From positions 128,001-192,000 of the forward strand of contig JAHQWK010000001.1 in the NCBI GenBank assembly GCA_029856145.1: a stretch of 64,000 nucleotides of DNA, read 5' to 3'. The stretch comes from Promethearchaeia archaeon. Its GTDB lineage: Archaea > Asgardarchaeota > Lokiarchaeia > Sigyniarchaeales > SOKP01. A program made the translations under genes and the position numbers. Below, one piece after another: positions 17,069 through 25,520 of this stretch; position 1 is the stretch's first letter, and each line of letters starts with the position of its first letter. The notes beneath the pieces are model-generated. The model saw only the letters and a program-made list of their open reading frames with translations, searched no databases and was not told where the DNA came from.

Positions 17069-17830
17069 TTGAAAATGTTAATAGATATCCATTGTCATGC
17101 TAATCTCTATCTTAATCTTGAAAAAATTATTAAAGAAGCGAAAAATGTTGGAGTAGAAAAGATTATTTCTGTTGGTATGAGTTTTACTAGCCTAGAAAGG
17201 ATATTAGAAATATCTGACAAATATGATACAATTTATCCTGCTTTAGGAATCCATCCTGAAGAAGTGAGGATGAATAAAAACATTGGTAATCAATTAGATT
17301 TAGTAGTGGATATTATTAAAAAAAATAATGCAAAAATTTGTGCTATAGGGGAGATTGGTTTAGATTATCATTTTGTTAAAGAAAAGGAGTTATATCCTCT
17401 TCAAAAGGATATCTTTAAGATTATGCTTGGATTAGCGCAGGAATTGAATTTACCTGTTAATTTACATACTAATGGGGCAGAAAAAATAGTTTTTGACATG
17501 CTACCCTCATATAATATCCCCAATGTTAATATTCATTGGTATTCTGGACCTGAACAATTTTTAAATTTAGGAATAGATAGGGGATACTTTTTCTCAGTTA
17601 CACCTGCAATTAGTTATTCACCAGCAGTTAAGAATACTGTTTTAAAAATTGATAAAGATTTCATTCTTCTCGAGAGTGATGGGCCAGTAAAATACTCAGG
17701 AAAAATCGGCACTCCTGCAATGATTAGAGATGTGTTAAATGCAATATCTAAGCTAAAGAAAATTGATTCTAAAGAATTAGAAATACAAATAGAAAATAAT
17801 ACTAAATTAATTTTCCCAAAAATCTTTTAA
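17069..17830 (+). CDS. tatD: TatD-family nuclease
   Basis: IDIHCH, GIHP, IGEIGLD, HWYSG, LESDGP. Confidence 0.92.
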   Translation: MKMLIDIHCHANLYLNLEKIIKEAKNVGVEKIISVGMSFTSLERILEISDKYDTIYPALGIHPEEVRMNKNIGNQLDLVVDIIKKNNAKICAIGEIGLDYHFVKEKELYPLQKDIFKIMLGLAQELNLPVNLHTNGAEKIVFDMLPSYNIPNVNIHWYSGPEQFLNLGIDRGYFFSVTPAISYSPAVKNTVLKIDKDFILLESDGPVKYSGKIGTPAMIRDVLNAISKLKKIDSKELEIQIENNTKLIFPKIF

Positions 17831-17935
17831 GAAATAATCATATTATTATGGTTTACTTCACTCAATTATTAAGTTTCCAACATCTATGATATTTTTAGGA
17901 AAGTTTTGTTAATTAATTTATAATTTAGTATTTAA

Positions 17936-18811
17936 TTAATTGGGTTTTTCAGCGATAATAAATATTTGATGTTCTGGTACAACAGGTTCATCAATTCCAA
18001 CATATTTGGTTTCAATCACATCAAATCCATATGATTTCAGAAGTTTTTTCCATTCTTCCACCTTAAGGAAATTAAGAGGTACATTGATATCTTCATCCCC
18101 AATTACTCGATTGTAAAACCAATCAAAAAAGCTATTAGTCATCCTAATATCATCTTCTTCAACATAAGCTTCTTTAATAATTAGGCGATGTTTAGTTACT
18201 CTCGTTGCTTCCTCCAATAAATGTTCGGGGTCGCTCGCATGATGTAAAACAGTATATAAAATTGTAGTATCTACTTCCCCATCTGATAACGGTACTTTAC
18301 CCTCTGGATTGTATAAGATCAATGGTAGGTTCGTATAATTATAATCTACAATATCAACAAGTAAGACTTCTTTATCAAGCTGTTCTTTTATTTCTAGCGC
18401 TAAAAGCCCATTTCCTGCACCAAGATCAAGTATCTTCTTTCCTACGATGTAGTTTTTAACTTTTTCACACCTTATTTTAGCCTGTTTGAATTCTTTAGCC
18501 TTGAGATCTTTTTCATTATCGACATGTTTTCTGATAAATTTTCGAAATGCTTCTTCAACTTTAATAAGAGGTGTTCCTTTTTTCAGGCCTCTAGTTATGG
18601 TTCTATTTACATAAAACCAAAAAATTTGTCTTTTAAAAAAATTTAAATTAGCATTTTTCATGGCAGATAAAAATAATGACCGAATTTCATTCCAATAGTA
18701 CCTATTTTTTTTAATTTTCTTAGAAAATATTGGATATATGAGACTTTCCACAACATCAATATCGTTTTGATTAGCAGGTTTGTAAAATTTAATTATTTCT
18801 TCTTGAATCAA
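17936..18811 (-). CDS. Class I SAM-dependent methyltransferase
   Basis: ILDLGAGNG, VLHHASDP, EATRV. Confidence 0.85.
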   Translation of the reverse strand: MIQEEIIKFYKPANQNDIDVVESLIYPIFSKKIKKNRYYWNEIRSLFLSAMKNANLNFFKRQIFWFYVNRTITRGLKKGTPLIKVEEAFRKFIRKHVDNEKDLKAKEFKQAKIRCEKVKNYIVGKKILDLGAGNGLLALEIKEQLDKEVLLVDIVDYNYTNLPLILYNPEGKVPLSDGEVDTTILYTVLHHASDPEHLLEEATRVTKHRLIIKEAYVEEDDIRMTNSFFDWFYNRVIGDEDINVPLNFLKVEEWKKLLKSYGFDVIETKYVGIDEPVVPEHQIFIIAEKPN

Positions 18812-18840
18812 TTATTTATCACAACCACTTAATTTTTAAG

Positions 18841-18886
18841 TAAGTGAGTATTTACTCACTTATAAACTTTATGAGTAATTGCTCAT
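18841..18886. promoter_or_regulatory. Two palindromic putative TetR operators
   Basis: TAAGTGAGTA-TT-TACTCACTTA (18841-18862, perfect 10-bp arms) and ATGAGTAATTGCTCAT (18871-18886) between the divergent methyltransferase and TetR genes. Confidence 0.75.
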
Positions 18887-18900
18887 TTAATATTATTATA

Positions 18901-19515
18901 ATGTTAAGTAAAAAATTTTCACGGAATAAACAAGAAAAAATTAACCGGATTTATGATACATTTTTTAACTTAATCTTAAAACAGGGATATCACAAAACAA
19001 GCACAAATCATGTTGCAAAATCAGCTAAGATTAGTATTGGTACGATTTATAAATATTTTCCGAAAGGGAAAGAAGATATTATAAGAAAATATTTTGAAGA
19101 ATCGATGGAAACTTTTTTGGATAGTCAGGATCTAAGTAACATGACTGATGAAAATATAAGAGTTTTTCTTAATCATTTTGTTTTAGATTTATTTAAGAAT
19201 CACGAGGAAAATAAAGGATATAATATAGCTTTTAGGTCTGCTATACAATCTGATCAAAAATTGCATGAAGCACACAAGGAGAAGATTTTTATTTTTTTTA
19301 AAGGTACAGCGCAGAAATTAAGGAAGATAAATAAAAACTTTAACCAGATACCTGAGGAAAGATTGGTTGAAACATTTATCTTTATTTATAATCTTATCAA
19401 TGCGATTTTATATCATCATTTATCTATAATGGAATTATTTGATACAGATGATAAGCTAGTTGATTATCTTACAAATTTAGTAGTTTTTTCATTGGAATAT
19501 TTACTTCAAAATTAA
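18901..19515 (+). CDS. TetR/AcrR-family regulator (likely ATG at 18901)
   Basis: GYHKTSTNHVAKSAKISIGTIYKYFP HTH. Confidence 0.9.
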   Translation: MLSKKFSRNKQEKINRIYDTFFNLILKQGYHKTSTNHVAKSAKISIGTIYKYFPKGKEDIIRKYFEESMETFLDSQDLSNMTDENIRVFLNHFVLDLFKNHEENKGYNIAFRSAIQSDQKLHEAHKEKIFIFFKGTAQKLRKINKNFNQIPEERLVETFIFIYNLINAILYHHLSIMELFDTDDKLVDYLTNLVVFSLEYLLQN

Positions 19516-19536
19516 AGATATACTAAAAAATAGTTT

Positions 19537-19668
19537 CTATGATTTTTCTTCTTTTTCCATCATTTTAATAATTTCTTCTGGAAGTTCTCCTTTATTTTTC
19601 ATACGGTTTAACATATCTTTTACTTCAGAGATGGTGTTTCCATAAATATGTAAAGAATTGCTAAAATC
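19537..19668 (-). pseudogene. thyA: Displaced 3' fragment of thymidylate synthase (second copy of the thyA end)
   Basis: Translates DFSNSLHIYGNTISEVKDMLNRMKNKGELPEEIIKMMEKEEKS*; 35/40 aa identical to the C-terminus of 22641-23645. Confidence 0.92.
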
Positions 19669-19681
19669 TTTTAAAGTTTCT

Positions 19682-19800
19682 TCATTTTGTGTTAAGAGAT
19701 TTTTCTATATCTTCCCAGAGCCCTGATAAATAAATTGAACCAAGAGTAAGATCATATAACCCGTATCCAGGGTGTCTTTTTTCCCCCAAATCATTCTTCC
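19682..19800 (-). pseudogene. uxuA: Frameshifted C-terminal remnant of mannonate dehydratase
   Basis: GRMIWG in one frame joins [28 protein letters not shown] in another, matching the UxuA C-terminal [22 protein letters not shown] motif. Confidence 0.75.
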
Positions 19801-19832
19801 CGGATTAAATTTATATTTTAAACAATCTTTAT

Positions 19833-21134
19833 TTAAATATTTCCTTGTTTGATTATATTTGATATATTTAATGAATCTAAATCCTTTTCTACTCTTATAT
19901 AGCGTTTTTCAATTTGATTTTTTTTGACATATTTGTCTATTATCTTTAGAACCATTTCTCTATCAATATTTCTGTTTACTGCTTTTTCTACTGGAACTAG
20001 CTTTTTAAGTAGAATTGATAGACTAATTTCTTTAAATTTTGCAATATTGTTGATGATATTCTTTTCTATGACATTAGGAATATTGATATTTTCAAATGAC
20101 TTGCAATCAATTTTACATATGAATATTATTTTTTCATCTTCAGACAAATTTTTAATAAAATTTGTAGTTATCTGTGGTGGTTTACTTCCATCTTCATAAC
20201 CAAGGAATTTTTTCATAATCAAATAATCAAAAACTTCATTAATTCCTTCACCAGTTAGAGCAGATGTTTCAAAATAAGCATAATTGTAATTTTTTGCTAA
20301 TTCTAAGGCTTGTTTCTTAATATCCTCTCTATTTTTAACAATATCAATTTTATTCCCTATAATTATAAACGGAATCTCCTTACTAGCAACAAATTGTTGA
20401 GCTTCTTTAATCCAATCCTTAAGTTTTATAAGGGTTTCAAATTTAGAATAGTCGAATAGAATAAGAATTGCATGAGAATATTTATAATAATATCTCCGCA
20501 CTTTTCCAAAGCTTTTTAAGCCTGATAAATCAAATAGATTTAATTTTAGGTTAATATCATTAGTTATCTGTAATTCCTTCTCTATTATTGAAACTCCAAT
20601 TGTAGGGTTATATTTTTCTATAAACACATCCCTTTTATACATTCCCATCAATGCAGTTTTGCCAACAGCTTCAGATCCTATAACAATGATGTTTCTACAA
20701 TTTGTGGTTAAGGCTAAATCATCATTTTGATTTAATTTTGGAGTGATCGAACAAGGATCAAAATTATTCAATATCAGTGATGCTTGATTAGCTATGATAT
20801 GAGAATAAGGTAAGAATTTGTCTAAATGAGAATAAGGACTTCCAATTAAAACAAAAATAGCGTTGGAACTTTTCCCTAATTCTATATAATACAAATGAAA
20901 ATCATCCATAACAAAAGAACCACTACCTAATTCTGTGTTTGTATATATTTTAATTCTATTTAGCGTTTGATCTAGAAGTGTCATTATACCTCCAATTAAA
21001 TCTTCATTGAATTCTTTTACTGACTTTTTTGCTACAATAAAACCATTAAAATCTACAATTAAAGCCGCTGATATATCTGGAACTTCAGTAAGCAAATGGG
21101 CTAGTAAATCCTCTATTATTGGTAATTTGTTCAT
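19833..21134 (-). CDS. Roadblock/LC7 domain + Rab-like small GTPase + C-terminal shared domain
   Basis: ALIVDFNGFIV (roadblock); GSEAVGKT, YNPTIG, DLSG, GNKID and ETSA G-motifs. Confidence 0.9.
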   Translation of the reverse strand: MNKLPIIEDLLAHLLTEVPDISAALIVDFNGFIVAKKSVKEFNEDLIGGIMTLLDQTLNRIKIYTNTELGSGSFVMDDFHLYYIELGKSSNAIFVLIGSPYSHLDKFLPYSHIIANQASLILNNFDPCSITPKLNQNDDLALTTNCRNIIVIGSEAVGKTALMGMYKRDVFIEKYNPTIGVSIIEKELQITNDINLKLNLFDLSGLKSFGKVRRYYYKYSHAILILFDYSKFETLIKLKDWIKEAQQFVASKEIPFIIIGNKIDIVKNREDIKKQALELAKNYNYAYFETSALTGEGINEVFDYLIMKKFLGYEDGSKPPQITTNFIKNLSEDEKIIFICKIDCKSFENINIPNVIEKNIINNIAKFKEISLSILLKKLVPVEKAVNRNIDREMVLKIIDKYVKKNQIEKRYIRVEKDLDSLNISNIIKQGNI

Positions 21135-21341
21135 TTCTTTGATAATTCATTAACACTAATATTCTTAAGAATTAACTCATCCGATTATGATTAATGTTTA
21201 GGAAGAGTTTTTTATATTTAAAAAAATTTACACCTATTTGATAATTTTATTCATTAATATGTGTTTTTAATCTATTTTTTACCTCTGCTTAACCAAAATT
21301 TAACGATTTTTTAGTTTTATAAACATTAAAAAAAAAAAATA

Positions 21342-21812
21342 TTAAATAGTAAAATCCATTTCAATATGACATATTTCAGCAGCTTGAAGTCTATTCTTAG
21401 TAATGTGAGGATCTATGCCCCTAGCATAAGATATCGCTCCTGTTAAAATACCTCCCACTGGACATGCGGTATTTCCTTCGAGATCATAACCTCCTATTCT
21501 TTTTGGACAAATTAAGCATTTTTGAACTACTAATCTAACCTTTTCTTCATCAACATCCACATCTAATTCTTCAGCAAGGTTAATGACACCCATTAGTGCG
21601 TTTATTAATTTTTCATCACTATCACTTACTTTAATAAGCTTTTTGTCTAACATTTCTTTCATTATTTCTCGACCAATCCAGATGCTCAATGCGTCCATTG
21701 CATCTTGTGTAGAAACACTGAATTCTTTGTTTAGGATGAAATCTCTTGTTTTAATTAATCCATATCCTAACCCAATAATTATTTTATTTAGGTAGGTTGG
21801 ATCTGTAGTTAT
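21342..21812 (-). CDS. V4R/MetOD1-like ligand-binding domain protein (likely ATA start at 21812; tracked ATG at 21698)
   Basis: VVQKCLICP...ACPVGGILTGAI...ICHIEM cysteine pattern; frame open 38 codons upstream, filling the gap to the preceding gene. Confidence 0.65.
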   Translation of the reverse strand: MTTDPTYLNKIIIGLGYGLIKTRDFILNKEFSVSTQDAMDALSIWIGREIMKEMLDKKLIKVSDSDEKLINALMGVINLAEELDVDVDEEKVRLVVQKCLICPKRIGGYDLEGNTACPVGGILTGAISYARGIDPHITKNRLQAAEICHIEMDFTI

Positions 21813-21825
21813 TATATCTCTTTTT

Positions 21826-22422
21826 TTAAATATTGGTATCTTTTACCCCCTCTTTAGGTAACTCTAAATCTTTAAATTCTATAAAATCTTTCTGAAATTT
21901 TACAATTTGCTTTTTTATAATTCCTTTTTTAATATACTTTTCAGTAACTTTAAGAATTGCATCTTGATCTATTTTTCTATTAATTGCTTTTTCGATATTG
22001 GAAAGCTCCTTAATCAATATAGCAATACTAATCTCTTTGTATTTTGCTATAATCATGATTATTTGTTTCTCAAGAATATTGGGTATATTTTGCTTTTTTA
22101 AAGAATCACAGTTATAATCGCAGGTTAGAATTATTTTTTCTTCAGAAGACATATTAGAGATAAAATCAGAAGTCATAAGCTTTGCCTTAATGTGATTATT
22201 CTCTACTTGGATATTTTTCTTCTCTAAAATGTTAAAAACAGGTTGAACCCCACGGACTTTAAAGTGGGCATCAACATAAGCAATTAATGTCTTTTTACAG
22301 TGTTCTATGACAAAGGGAATGGGATAACTATTAGAACGAGAAACTAGTTCCTTATTAATGTCAAAAATTATAATCTTTTTACAATGCGGACAATTAGCCA
22401 TTATACTAATAGTTTCAGCCAA
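21826..22422 (-). CDS. Zn-finger protein with a C-terminal domain shared with the GTPase at 19833-21134
   Basis: CPHC...EHC, YVDAHFKVRGVQ; C-terminal EEKII..C...C....NIPN..EK.I...IAK.KEIS. Confidence 0.75.
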   Translation of the reverse strand: MAETISIMANCPHCKKIIIFDINKELVSRSNSYPIPFVIEHCKKTLIAYVDAHFKVRGVQPVFNILEKKNIQVENNHIKAKLMTSDFISNMSSEEKIILTCDYNCDSLKKQNIPNILEKQIIMIIAKYKEISIAILIKELSNIEKAINRKIDQDAILKVTEKYIKKGIIKKQIVKFQKDFIEFKDLELPKEGVKDTNI

Positions 22423-22640
22423 AATTGATTACCCTAATTAGTTTTAAAACAATTTAATAAAAAGACTTGCTAAATTATTTGGAGAATTATAAAGATAATA
22501 AAATAAATAGTATATAAATATTATATGTTCATTGTTATTTCTCTTATAAGAGTAATAAAATAATTGGTTCAAACAACTTTTTTCAAAAAAAAAGAATCAT
22601 TTAATATTCTATTAATTCTCAAATGATTAAAAATGAAAGA

Positions 22641-23645
22641 TTATTCATTTTCCATTAATTTAATAACCTCTTCTGGTAGTTCTCCTTTATTTTTCATGCG
22701 AGATATCATATCTTTTACTTCAGAAATAGTATTTCCATAAATATGTAGAGAATTGCTAAAGTCTAGATAATGACCTATATCAACTCCTAATTGATCAGCA
22801 ACAAATTTTTGAATTCTAATCATTCCATTTACATTAGCTTCCCAAGCTCTAAATAAGTCTCTACTTCTCCAAGTTGTTTGCATTATCAATTTTCCTTCTT
22901 TTATACGCATATAAATTCTTTGTAAACAAGGAGGATCAATGTGAAAAGGATCAACTAACGGTCTCCATGTTATCGCTTGTGCTCTACGGCTATATGGTTT
23001 TTCTTTTAATTTTTGTATAATATAATTGATTTGATTAATTCTCGGAAATTCGAATAGAGCGATTGGAATTTCTTCAATTCCAATTTGTTCTGAAATTTTT
23101 TTATCTAAATCAAATTCAACACCATTTTTCAATTTCCAGATATTAGATTCAGGTGTACTTTTTACCTTGTCAGCTTTTATTAACTTTTGATGTCCTTTCA
23201 CAAACTCATTATTGATAATTTTGAGATCATAATTTTTATGAATCGTATCTTCAAGAGAGAAGGGAGCGTAATTGTAAATTCTATCATGATAAGAGTATGG
23301 AAAACTCACATCAGACTCACTTAATAAATTGTCATTTATCCCATCCATGATTTCTTCAATATATCCACTCTGAATAGAACCGATTAAATATATATCTGCT
23401 AAACAACCATAAACTTCATAAGAATTACCGAATTTCGATCTAATTTTCATGATCTTATCTTTACGCATAATAGGACTACTAAATGGTTCTGTAATCTCTA
23501 TTAAAACCGTAGCGTCTTTTGAAGGTGGGTCTTCCGGCTTATCATATTCAGTTTTAATATCATCACCAAAAAATAATACCTGTCCAACAACAGAAAGCCA
23601 TGCATCTCTAATACTATTTTTAGAAATAAAAAACACTTTAGCCAT
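22641..23645 (-). CDS. thyA: Archaeal-type thymidylate synthase with an internal insertion
   Basis: YSYHDRI, QINYII, SRRAQAITW, DPPCLQ (catalytic Cys), RSRD, AN, SLHIY. Confidence 0.88.
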   Translation of the reverse strand: MAKVFFISKNSIRDAWLSVVGQVLFFGDDIKTEYDKPEDPPSKDATVLIEITEPFSSPIMRKDKIMKIRSKFGNSYEVYGCLADIYLIGSIQSGYIEEIMDGINDNLLSESDVSFPYSYHDRIYNYAPFSLEDTIHKNYDLKIINNEFVKGHQKLIKADKVKSTPESNIWKLKNGVEFDLDKKISEQIGIEEIPIALFEFPRINQINYIIQKLKEKPYSRRAQAITWRPLVDPFHIDPPCLQRIYMRIKEGKLIMQTTWRSRDLFRAWEANVNGMIRIQKFVADQLGVDIGHYLDFSNSLHIYGNTISEVKDMISRMKNKGELPEEVIKLMENE

Positions 23646-23880
23646 TTTTTGAACAATTCCTTAAGATTTTTTCAGTTTAGAATGATATAGATATTTACTG
23701 TTTACACTATTAGAATTTATTTATTACAAATTTAATAAAATTCTATAGAGTATTATAAATTTTTATATCAGCTTTATCCAAATATTTGAAATAGCTAAAT
23801 TTACATTATTTTATTATAAGAATATACTCACAACTATAAAGAATTATTATACAATATAATTAAAGAGAGTGTTAACCTTC

Positions 23881-24051
23881 ATGGGAGGATTTGGAAAAAA
23901 ATTAAAAAAAGGATTAGCCAAGGCTACTGGAGGACTTGTTGAAAATGTCACAGGTAGTGAGGCTGCTGGTAAAGGTGTGAAAAAAGCAGTTAAAAAAGGT
24001 AGCGTGAAAAAAGGCGTCAAGAAAGCAATTAAAGAAGCAGAAGATGATTAA
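23881..24051 (+). CDS. Small Lys/Gly-rich basic protein (56 aa)
   Basis: MGGFGKKLKKGLAK...KGVKKAVKKGSVKKGVKKAIKEAEDD; GC-richer than its flanks and followed by T-tracts. Confidence 0.65.
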   Translation: MGGFGKKLKKGLAKATGGLVENVTGSEAAGKGVKKAVKKGSVKKGVKKAIKEAEDD

Positions 24052-24169
24052 GTACAAATCATTATTTTAAAACTTCTTTATTCTTTTTATTTTTTATTAA
24101 CATCAAATTTTTAATAATTTAATACCTTTAAATTCTTAAGCTAAGTGAATTGAAGGGTTTGCTTAAAAT

Positions 24170-24460
24170 TTGAAATTAAGTCTTGAATTTTCTCCACCAT
24201 TTAATGAGATAACTAAAAATCTTTTTGAAACACTTGAATTTGATAAAGAACTAACTTTAAATGAATTGATAGAATTTTTTAGACAAAAGTTTGGAGATAG
24301 ATTTACAGATTTAGTTTGGGAAAAGGGAGAGAAGGGAAAATTTAACAAACTTCTTTCTATTATTATTAATGGAAGAAGTTATCAACATGATAAATTTTTA
24401 GAAACCAAGCTAAAAGATGGAGACCAAATTGTTTTTATTTATGTTTATTTTGGCGGGTAA
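24170..24460 (+). CDS. MoaD/ThiS (SAMP-like) ubiquitin-fold protein
   Basis: IIINGR...LKDGDQI...FGG with C-terminal diglycine. Confidence 0.88.
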   Translation: MKLSLEFSPPFNEITKNLFETLEFDKELTLNELIEFFRQKFGDRFTDLVWEKGEKGKFNKLLSIIINGRSYQHDKFLETKLKDGDQIVFIYVYFGG

Positions 24461-24488
24461 AATCACAAATAATTGATAGATTCTAATT

Positions 24489-25520
24489 TTAGAGTAAAAA
24501 TATTATCCACATAACAAACCCAGTCAACAATGGATTTAATATATTGTCAGAAATATTCTTGGTATAAGCATCTATAAGCATAAATAATAAAGTAGCAGCA
24601 AAACTCATAATAATAATTTTCTCGATAGCAATAGGCATCCAAGGATGATAGAAAATCGAAATTAGATAAACTATTATAAATGTCGTTAAGCCACCGGCGA
24701 TAAGACCTTCAACAGTCTTTTTTGTATTTGTCCTAAGATTATGTTTTCCATATTTCTTCCCTATAATACAAGCAACTCCATCTGAACCAGTAGTTATTAA
24801 GGCAACAGCAGCAAAAATCGGAAACGGCGCAAAAATGAATGGTGAAAAAGATAAAACTAATGGAATAGAGGCTATAAATGTATGCAATTCATTCTGTTTT
24901 ATATCTAAATACCACTTTTTAGCCCAGTTTGGAAGCATATAATATTTATTTAATCGAGCAAGGTCGGCTACTTGGAACATAAACACAAAACCATAACCAA
25001 CAGTAATTGTTAACCAATAGGAAAAACTATAATTATCTAAACCCCATTGAGTTAAAACACCGAGATCACTAAGGACAGTTCCTAATGTCCAAAAGAAAAA
25101 AATTACAAAACATGTAAAAAGGTGCAGAAATTTACGACCGACTTCAGATTTTAAGTCATCAACCCAATTATTGTCAAATTCTTCACAAAATTTACCATAA
25201 TCTCTATCTGCCATAATCTCAGGATTCGTTTTTGAAATAACAGTATTATATATTAAAGTTATTGCCCATACTCCCATTTCAATTAAAAAAACGACAGAAG
25301 TAAATAACCATAAAAAATTTAATGAATTCTGACTCAAATTAGGTGAATGAGAACGATACATAAATGGATAAATAATTCCCGCCATCAAAAATAATACTGC
25401 AATTAATAGTTCATTGAGAAATAAGTGTTTTTTAATTTTATTTTTTCTATTCTTTATTGTATAAACTAAGGTTAAGATAAAATATCCTACTAAAATTAAG
25501 CTTGTAGGCAAAAAATACAT
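24489..25520 (-). CDS. CTP-dependent polyprenol/diacylglycerol kinase family (Sec59/Dgk1/VTE5-like)
   Basis: EVGRKFLH, SDGVACIIGKKYG, KKTVEG, SDNILNP; polytopic membrane protein. Confidence 0.8.
   Translation of the reverse strand: MYFLPTSLILVGYFILTLVYTIKNRKNKIKKHLFLNELLIAVLFLMAGIIYPFMYRSHSPNLSQNSLNFLWLFTSVVFLIEMGVWAITLIYNTVISKTNPEIMADRDYGKFCEEFDNNWVDDLKSEVGRKFLHLFTCFVIFFFWTLGTVLSDLGVLTQWGLDNYSFSYWLTITVGYGFVFMFQVADLARLNKYYMLPNWAKKWYLDIKQNELHTFIASIPLVLSFSPFIFAPFPIFAAVALITTGSDGVACIIGKKYGKHNLRTNTKKTVEGLIAGGLTTFIIVYLISIFYHPWMPIAIEKIIIMSFAATLLFMLIDAYTKNISDNILNPLLTGFVMWIIFLL

Follow-up and report, generated by a model that had tools for sequence, protein, structure and literature searches.

A duplicated thyA 3' end at a variable thyA/TatD slot in Loki-type Asgard archaea, a candidate scar of homology-facilitated illegitimate recombination

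Introduction

Flexible genomic islands and integration hot spots between core genes are a general concept of the prokaryote pangenome. Homology-facilitated illegitimate recombination (HFIR) has been described for bacteria and is defined, as listed in PMC5361080, in the naturally transformable Acinetobacter, Streptococcus pneumoniae and Pseudomonas stutzeri. The same paper describes the displaced 3' ends of type VI secretion system (T6SS), Rhs and contact-dependent inhibition (CDI) genes, and it proposes HFIR as a possible mechanism. Here we analyze a locus from a Promethearchaeia archaeon, contained in 64,000 nucleotides of contig JAHQWK010000001.1 (assembly GCA_029856145.1), a stretch that we call the window and whose positions we use throughout. 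At this locus the 3' end of a thyA gene is present twice, on either side of a three-gene small-GTPase cassette. We propose that the duplication is probably, although by no means assuredly, the scar of an HFIR event between two different fillings of a variable slot that lies between thyA and a TatD-family nuclease gene, with thyA serving as the homologous anchor.

The published work on Asgard gene flow that we found covers viruses, plasmids, integrated elements and transfer counts based on trees. For Asgard archaea, the literature searched contained no account of scars like these, or of modules exchanged without an element and resolved to their junctions. For the comparison presented herein we used about 100 loci of the genus, where G labels denote genomes and L labels denote loci, G000 being the genome of the window.

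Results

The original prediction, made from the DNA letters and their open reading frames (ORFs), held that the thyA 3' end recurs on the same strand about 3 kb away, and this is the case. Repeat search and alignment give a 124-nt direct repeat (19546-19669 versus 22641-22764) that is 86% identical, with a spacing of 3095 nt. The abrupt start of the similarity at D-F-S-N-S-L-H-I-Y, also part of that prediction, falls at thyA codon 295, and the similarity extends from there to the stop region. The two copies differ at 17 of 124 nt, the mismatches are spread throughout and the longest run that is exactly shared is 20 nt. Over the 41 codons compared, 35 specify the same residue, with 8 synonymous and 6 non-synonymous changes. 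The genome (3.55 Mb in 32 contigs) has one full thyA and one fragment, with no further copy. The fragment, which we term thyA', and the intact gene are as follows.

22641..23645, minus strand: intact thyA-like gene, 334 aa, mosaic (PF00303, E 1.3e-16; TIGR03283, E 4e-40, which is below the cut-off of that model)
22641..22764, minus strand: repeat copy 1, the last 40 codons and stop of the intact thyA (repeat search, alignment)
19537..19669, minus strand: thyA', the displaced thyA 3' end from codon 295 to the stop, without a start codon (alignment; no ORF of at least 40 aa called)

No thyA sequence lies upstream of thyA', and across 35 residues its protein is the consensus of the relatives, which suggests that it was part of a working gene until recently. 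Together with the fact that 8 of the 14 differing codons are synonymous, this indicates that the two copies diverged as parts of working genes. Copies on the same strand and only 3.1 kb apart are what a local tandem duplication within the lineage, followed by divergence and with no transfer, would give. Such an origin is barely credible, however, given the retained family consensus and the predominance of synonymous codon differences, and given three features described below, namely the tetR-linked tail of thyA', the TatD remnant at its boundary and the mosaic nature of both flanks.

The junction beside the displaced copy is the most informative part of the locus, and two short remnants make it up.

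19682..~19806, minus strand: uxuA', a decaying 3' remnant of a mannonate dehydratase gene, ~41 codons (alignment to relatives; its own stop at 19682-19684)
19661..19675, plus strand: TatD', the last 15 nt of a TatD gene (stop and four codons), TTTAAAAGATTTTAG, in the same position and orientation as after uxuA in relatives

The uxuA remnant had been predicted to lie between the copies, and 19682-~19806 indeed aligns with the last ~41 codons of the relatives' mannonate dehydratase. The antisense TatD remnant (19661-19675) was absent from that prediction. Read in order, the junction consists of the uxuA remnant, a 6-nt spacer, the 15 terminal nt of TatD (antisense) and thyA beginning at codon 295. 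The inner 9 nt of TatD', AGATTTTAG (19661-19669), are the antisense of TatD C-terminal codons and are also thyA codons 294-297, and every thyA allele that was compared has them. In the eight relatives whose slot contains uxuA, 6-7 nt separate the uxuA stop from the antisense TatD end ...TTYAAAAGATTTTRGG..., and the uxuA/TatD boundary in the window matches theirs nearly base for base. The point at which similarity abruptly begins is thus an illegitimate join at a microhomology, and this join lies within AGATTTTAG. The presence of TatD' at the boundary means that the "bracket" between the repeats also holds 15 nt of a third gene. The uxuA' sequence has a 1-nt deletion that shifts the frame and changes at invariant residues, and it is 76-82% identical to its relatives, versus 86% among the relatives themselves. 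Such visible decay fits debris that was brought in with cargo.

A junction of this kind might be produced by the assembly of two co-occurring strains into a chimera, where one strain carries the cassette and the other has tetR beside thyA. Indeed, the window belongs to a metagenome-assembled genome of the Promethearchaeota (Loki-type Asgard) with an estimated contamination of 5.4%, and the structure was read from the assembly alone. Nevertheless, we regard a chimera as highly improbable. The 9-nt overlap and the at most 20 nt of exact sharing are too short for a jump in a k-mer graph, a chimera through thyA would give one collinear thyA and not a truncated copy preceded by TatD' and uxuA', and independent assemblies of other species carry the same kind of scar (see below).

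The backbone of the locus is kept in the ~100 loci and consists of a CTP-transferase-like gene, ThiS, a small Lys-rich ORF, thyA, TatD and a gene for a 112-aa protein. The thyA and TatD-family nuclease genes converge, and the gap between their stop codons forms the variable slot. Among the 64 loci with both flanks, the slot is empty (15-48 nt) in 38 and filled (123 nt to 3.9 kb) in 26. The filled slots have either a remnant or a cargo, with six or more kinds of cargo in all, and the cargoes of most of the 26 differ. In 5 further loci more than 6 kb follow thyA without TatD, and some loci without TatD have putative transporter genes, a class judged from their N-termini with no family scan. The cargoes include a D-mannonate oxidoreductase and mannonate dehydratase pair (SDR-uxuA), a TetR regulator and class I methyltransferase pair, a pair of 626-aa and 434-aa proteins, a 785-aa protein and others, and those other than the GTPase cassette are ordinary metabolic genes. 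SDR-uxuA occupies the slot in the close relative G008, together with an SDR-type thyA end. An empty counterpart of the cassette site, with thyA converging on tetR and a tail of the ...EEKS type, was foreseen in the original prediction and exists in G017/L145 (...IMEREEKS) and G060/L096 (...MMEREIES), in each of which thyA lies 37 nt from tetR.

Two observations concern the presence of these modules in other settings. In G005 (L037:9630-9750, complete chromosome CP070831) the slot is 123 nt long and holds ~35 nt of the SDR start fused to ~45 nt of internal uxuA sequence, a deletion scar indicating that G005 has lost the SDR-uxuA module. The TetR-methyltransferase pair is found with neither thyA nor TatD within 1.5 kb in six species (G011, G067, G013, G047, G065 and G024; loci L073, L074, L077, L078, L080 and L081), so this two-gene module also occurs outside the slot.

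Both flanks of the window's slot are mosaic. On the TatD side, the features are these.

17069..17830, plus strand: TatD-family nuclease gene, the conserved right flank of the slot, mosaic (PF01026, E 7e-53)
17140..19536, no strand assigned: G017/G060-related block, comprising the 3' 690 nt of TatD, the methyltransferase and TetR (sliding identity)
17936-18811, minus strand: class I methyltransferase, within that block
18844-19515, plus strand: TetR regulator, within that block

The TatD haplotype switches at 17129-17148, for which the informative-site Fisher p is 1e-12 to 1e-16, values that are uncorrected for the choice of the best breakpoint but lie far beyond what such a correction could remove. 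To the left of this interval the window is nearest to its general closest relatives, G006, G016, G005 and G060. To the right, through the methyltransferase and TetR, it is nearest to G017, and the 5' half of tetR is nearest to G060. Identity to G017/G060 within the block is 0.83-0.96, while to the left of the block identity to G017 is 0.64-0.79. The left edge of the block is a homologous crossover inside TatD at 17129-17148. On the other flank, the intact thyA is nearest to close relatives with mostly empty slots (L083, L086, L085 and L087) up to about position 800 of its coding sequence (CDS), and from CDS ~800-850 to its end the nearest neighbors are all SDR-uxuA carriers. The p value for this breakpoint is 1.6e-4 to 1e-7 depending on the pair, with most pairs at or below 4e-6. 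SDR-type, or donor-type, consensus sites are found at CDS 846, 856, 864 and perhaps 752, and the repeat boundary is at CDS 883.

These sites bear on a Campbell-type integration, in which a 3.1-kb fragment (thyA from codon 295 to its stop, the cassette, uxuA' and 15 nt of TatD) would have been circularized at the microhomology and inserted by one crossover within the 124-nt segment. Such an event yields a cassette bracketed by direct repeats whose spacing equals the size of the circle, and thyA' does resemble a hybrid of two haplotypes. It is an improbable route, though, since the donor-type sites lie upstream of the repeat, albeit there are only three or four of them, and a crossover limited to the repeated segment would not produce this. 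Moreover, a segment of 124 nt that is 86% identical and has no exact match longer than 20 nt is a poor substrate for a crossover. In G007, too, the crossover interval (CDS 798-873, see below) allows a position upstream of the join.

The displaced copy itself combines two types of sequence. Its last 42 nt (...MMEKEEKS-stop) match G017 at 38/42, and this tail and the adjoining intergenic stretch match the thyA-tetR junction of G017, G060, G014 and G007. The ...EEKS tail is otherwise seen only on intact thyA genes that adjoin tetR, and the thyA-tetR junction has a single origin and moves together with tetR. The first 90 nt of thyA', by comparison, match L086 at 82/90 and G008 at 81/90, and the tetR-linked alleles at only 71-73/90. 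The sequence of patches is therefore the close-relative-type 5' part of TatD, the G017/G060-type block, the close-relative-type body of thyA' and its tetR-type tail, and on either side the closest backbones include that of G060, in which thyA abuts tetR. In the simplest reading, the patch is a tetR-methyltransferase module that was set in place by two homologous crossovers, after which thyA of the ancestor would have adjoined tetR.

Two relatives contain junctions of a similar kind. In G007 (L116), a sister species, thyA is followed by tetR, the methyltransferase, 93 nt from the 3' end of TatD, a second thyA piece that begins near codon 283, and then SDR, uxuA and TatD, while G020 (L104) has the plain order thyA-SDR-uxuA-TatD. 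Identity between G007 and G020 is 94-95% across the CTP-transferase gene, ThiS, thyA 1-800 and SDR, and 87-91% across uxuA, TatD and the 112-aa gene. Its thyA 3' part, tetR and methyltransferase, on the other hand, are 90-96% identical to L123/L124/L112. The thyA gene of G007 switches to the tetR type between CDS 798 and 873 (p ~1e-13), its displaced thyA piece is of the G020 type (85% identity) and carries a stop, and the join has at most ~1-4 shared bases. G007 represents a clean and independent thyA-anchored event in which a new thyA end, cargo and a TatD stub came in and the resident end was displaced. G014 provides a third junction, in which uxuA is intact and adjoins the terminal 35-60 nt of a tetR-type thyA, with tetR beyond. 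The join in thyA is thus near codon 283 in G007, at codon 295 in G000 and near codon 315 in G014, and three join positions in three genomes point to a repeated process rather than a site-specific enzyme.

The DNA between the two thyA copies is dominated by the GTPase cassette, with the following features.

19807..22590 (edges approximate), minus strand: three-gene cassette (ORFs; boundaries by alignment to relatives)
21826-22422, minus strand: 198-aa protein with an N-terminal CxxC motif (ORF)
21342-21698, minus strand: 118-aa protein (ORF)
19833-21134, minus strand: 433-aa Ras-family GTPase (Ras/Roc/Arf matches)

These are the three genes that the original prediction had placed between the copies. 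The cassette takes the place of the SDR gene and the first ~88% of uxuA of the relatives, with a left edge ~50 nt downstream of the thyA stop and a right edge at ~19807. It is single-copy in G000. The three genes are found together in 4 of 53 other species of the genus (G024, G063, G059 and G052), where the loci are unrelated and two different gene orders occur, and the copies in these other genomes have no thyA piece alongside. The 118-aa protein is 75-83% identical to its counterparts in the other species, the 198-aa protein and the GTPase 44-56%. At the 218-nt spacer on the thyA side, the sole cassette edge tested for repeated or mobile sequence, the matches were only weak, short and AT-rich. 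A cassette adjoining thyA was found in none of the 53 other species of the genus, the 80 GTDB loci or a protein scan of Joint Genome Institute (JGI) metagenomes. A 21-nt junction-specific pattern gave 27 matches, none near thyA, uxuA or tetR homologues, and we discarded these as chance.

The 198-aa protein and the GTPase have a C-terminal domain in common at ~40% identity. These paralogous C-termini span ~125 residues in the GTPase (19836-20207, minus strand) and ~140 residues in the 198-aa protein (21826-22250, minus strand), and the pairing is retained in all four other cassettes. A Pfam search at a loose threshold gave no name for the 118-aa protein or for the common domain. A weak Roadblock/LC7 hint for the GTPase N-terminus (E 0.19) and V4R/TRAPP-type suggestions from a protein atlas are leads only.

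The original prediction explained the repeats by an element with a site-specific integrase that used the thyA 3' end as an attachment (att) site, restored the gene and later lost the integrase. The topology does resemble attL and attR sites around an island, and the cassette is patchy and located at different loci in other species. We nevertheless consider such an element very improbable, and the role of thyA as an attachment site falls with it. Pfam scans of all ORFs in 17069-25520 contain no integrase or recombinase gene, and no tRNA or shift in composition was found at the locus. There is no identical core, and the junction positions differ between G000, G007 and G014. The join, in its 9 nt, is to a TatD remnant, and the cargo ends in debris (uxuA' and TatD') of the same slot from another genome. 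In addition, the cassette copies elsewhere are without a thyA piece, none of them was seen with thyA-like att repeats on its flanks or an integrase beside it, and the other cargoes of the slot are ordinary metabolic genes. What stands of the earlier view of the cassette as cargo is that it is a rare accessory module and that, in the order we favor, an incoming thyA 3' end displaces the resident one; the integrating element does not stand. We reject the integrase, chimera and tandem duplication models on the grounds set out for each.

Several further observations relate to the neighborhood. In the window, a 60-aa Lys/Gly-rich ORF lies between thyA and ThiS (23869-24051, plus strand), with 69-88% identity in most relatives, and it holds short internal repeats (GTGAAAAAAG-type, repeat family D2). 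In G024 (L050:6110-9220) ~3 kb separate ThiS from the small Lys-rich ORF, versus ~120 nt in other genomes, and this gap is a second variable point. At L131:3965-4016, inside a 2.8-kb slot cargo, ~52 nt are 77% identical to the TatD 3' end and may represent a further end-duplication scar. The CTP-transferase-like gene of G007 (L052:1878-2905) matches in two overlapping pieces (residues 1-150 and 124-343) and probably carries a frameshift or a small internal duplication.

Discussion

We now put forward a hypothetical mechanism for the origin of the thyA duplication by HFIR. The ancestor would have had thyA converging directly on the TetR-methyltransferase module, as is the case in present G017 and G060, this module having earlier been introduced through a pair of ordinary homologous crossovers, of which the first lies in TatD (17129-17148) and the second within the final ~30 nt of thyA. 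A linear fragment would then have arrived from another species of the genus, whose slot carried an SDR-uxuA module in which SDR and most of uxuA had already been replaced by the GTPase cassette. We propose that this fragment began within thyA, upstream of CDS ~850, took in the cassette and uxuA', and stopped after 15 nt of TatD. Its thyA part would have paired with the resident thyA, leading to a homologous crossover that anchored the fragment. The other end, with no usable homology, would have been closed illegitimately at AGATTTTAG, which is shared by the antisense TatD end of the fragment and codons 294-297 of the resident thyA. The outcome would be an intact chimeric thyA, an insertion of 3095 nt, and the end of the resident thyA (codon 295 to stop) left downstream as an inactive piece. 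These steps would presumably call on RadA-type strand exchange, on microhomology-mediated end joining and on some route of DNA entry.

The elements of such an event are found at the locus. A homologous crossover in a conserved anchor beside the insert is seen in thyA, in TatD and in the thyA of G007. At the opposite end the join is at a microhomology of a few bases, 9 nt in G000, while the other end of each scar event is an ordinary homologous crossover. That the insert came from another genome is indicated by the copies, which differ mostly synonymously, and by the block identities, which point to other lineages. We favor this order because it explains the mosaic nature of thyA and its reach upstream of the repeat, the hybrid nature of thyA', the decayed uxuA', the G060-like backbone and the likeness to G007.

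The same mechanism may also have operated in the mirror order, which we consider a serious alternative, albeit a rather unlikely one. Specifically, the resident would have been thyA-cassette-uxuA'-TatD, derived from a G008-like genome, and the incoming fragment, from a relative, would have consisted of thyA from codon 295, tetR, the methyltransferase and TatD. It would have been anchored by a homologous crossover in TatD at 17129-17148, and its thyA end would have been joined to the 3' end of the resident TatD at the 9-nt microhomology named above. In that case thyA' is the foreign copy and belongs to the tetR block outside the repeats, the cassette arrived separately and the repeats bracket no single unit. 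The mirror order has the merit that a single event accounts for both the TatD breakpoint and the junction. Moreover, with SDR-uxuA in G008 and its deletion scar in G005, the module may be ancestral to the clade and the thyA mosaic native, and the ...EEKS tail and tetR junction are common to G017, G014 and G007 and so travel with tetR. However, the body of thyA' is of the close-relative type (82/90 to L086) and not of the tetR type (71-73/90), so the donor would need to have had the same hybrid by coincidence. Furthermore, an incoming end with 124 nt of thyA homology would have been joined by 9 nt elsewhere, and G007, the sole case that can be resolved, is anchored in thyA. The fact that uxuA' is more decayed than thyA' is neutral as to direction.

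Some points weigh against the thyA-anchored order. The predicted donor, with the arrangement thyA, cassette, uxuA' and TatD, was not found in the genus, in the GTDB species representatives or in JGI metagenomes. The direction of transfer is deduced from short stretches, and if the ancestor was G008-like, its thyA end was of the SDR type from the outset, in which case the thyA mosaic would need no such event. The hybrid character of thyA' comes from contrasts in the body and in the tail that each reach only p ~0.1. The 124-nt copies hold just 2 sites that separate the haplotype groups and their identities to relatives overlap, so that 124 nt alone do not decide which copy is native. The nearest relatives of G000 are only ~88% identical, which makes resident and incoming DNA less separable than in G007. 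A 9-nt match easily arises by chance at 27% G+C, and it would mark the join without proving a mechanism. Finally, the structure was read from a metagenome assembly.

The locus provides base-pair evidence that related Promethearchaeota species swap whole modules via homologous flanks, and that DNA with just one such flank to pair with has its remaining end sealed by joining at a microhomology. A three-gene small-GTPase cassette, belonging to a class counted among the eukaryote-like signature genes, was moved or trapped by one of these events. Displaced 3' ends of core genes also offer a practical marker that can be searched for genome-wide to gauge how frequent this route is. A more speculative extension, to which we attach little confidence, is that the thyA/TatD slot is more than a passive hot spot and that the last ~50 codons of thyA are a preferred capture point in Loki-type Asgard archaea, through which modules, including eukaryote-like small-GTPase cassettes, pass between species without a mobile element. 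The joins near codons 283, 295 and 315 in three species and the crossovers near CDS 800-870 in two would agree with this. If so, such a point could be favored because an essential gene that is conserved at the nucleotide level both anchors pairing and selects for recombinants that keep the gene intact.

Neither the mechanism, which is familiar from bacteria, nor the concept of a slot is new, and it is against these systems that the locus should be seen. With HFIR the locus has in common a one-sided homologous anchor, a microhomology join near that anchor, foreign DNA beside a conserved gene and no dedicated recombinase or element. It differs in that the organism is an Asgard archaeon, the process is inferred from scars and not from experiments, and the "foreign" DNA is what a related species has at this very locus as an alternative filling. 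With integrative elements whose targets are the 3' ends of genes, at att sites in tRNA or protein genes, the gene likewise remains whole and the distal end of the insert has a partial direct repeat, but here there is no integrase and no identical core, the junction positions vary and a remnant of the neighboring gene forms part of the junction. The displacement of C-terminal ends, as in the effector-immunity modules of the Vibrio cholerae T6SS (PMC5361080) and the Rhs and CDI orphan ends cited there, is alike in that an incoming 3' end shifts the old end downstream. The displaced ends there, however, are selected alternative toxin tips with immunity genes, whereas thyA' has no evident function and is nearly identical to the corresponding part of a housekeeping gene, and the cargo here is unrelated to thyA. 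As in flexible islands, one slot takes up different cargo by species and exchange proceeds via conserved flanks that become mosaics; what sets the thyA/TatD slot apart is the junction-level detail in Promethearchaeota, with three end-duplication scars at one slot.

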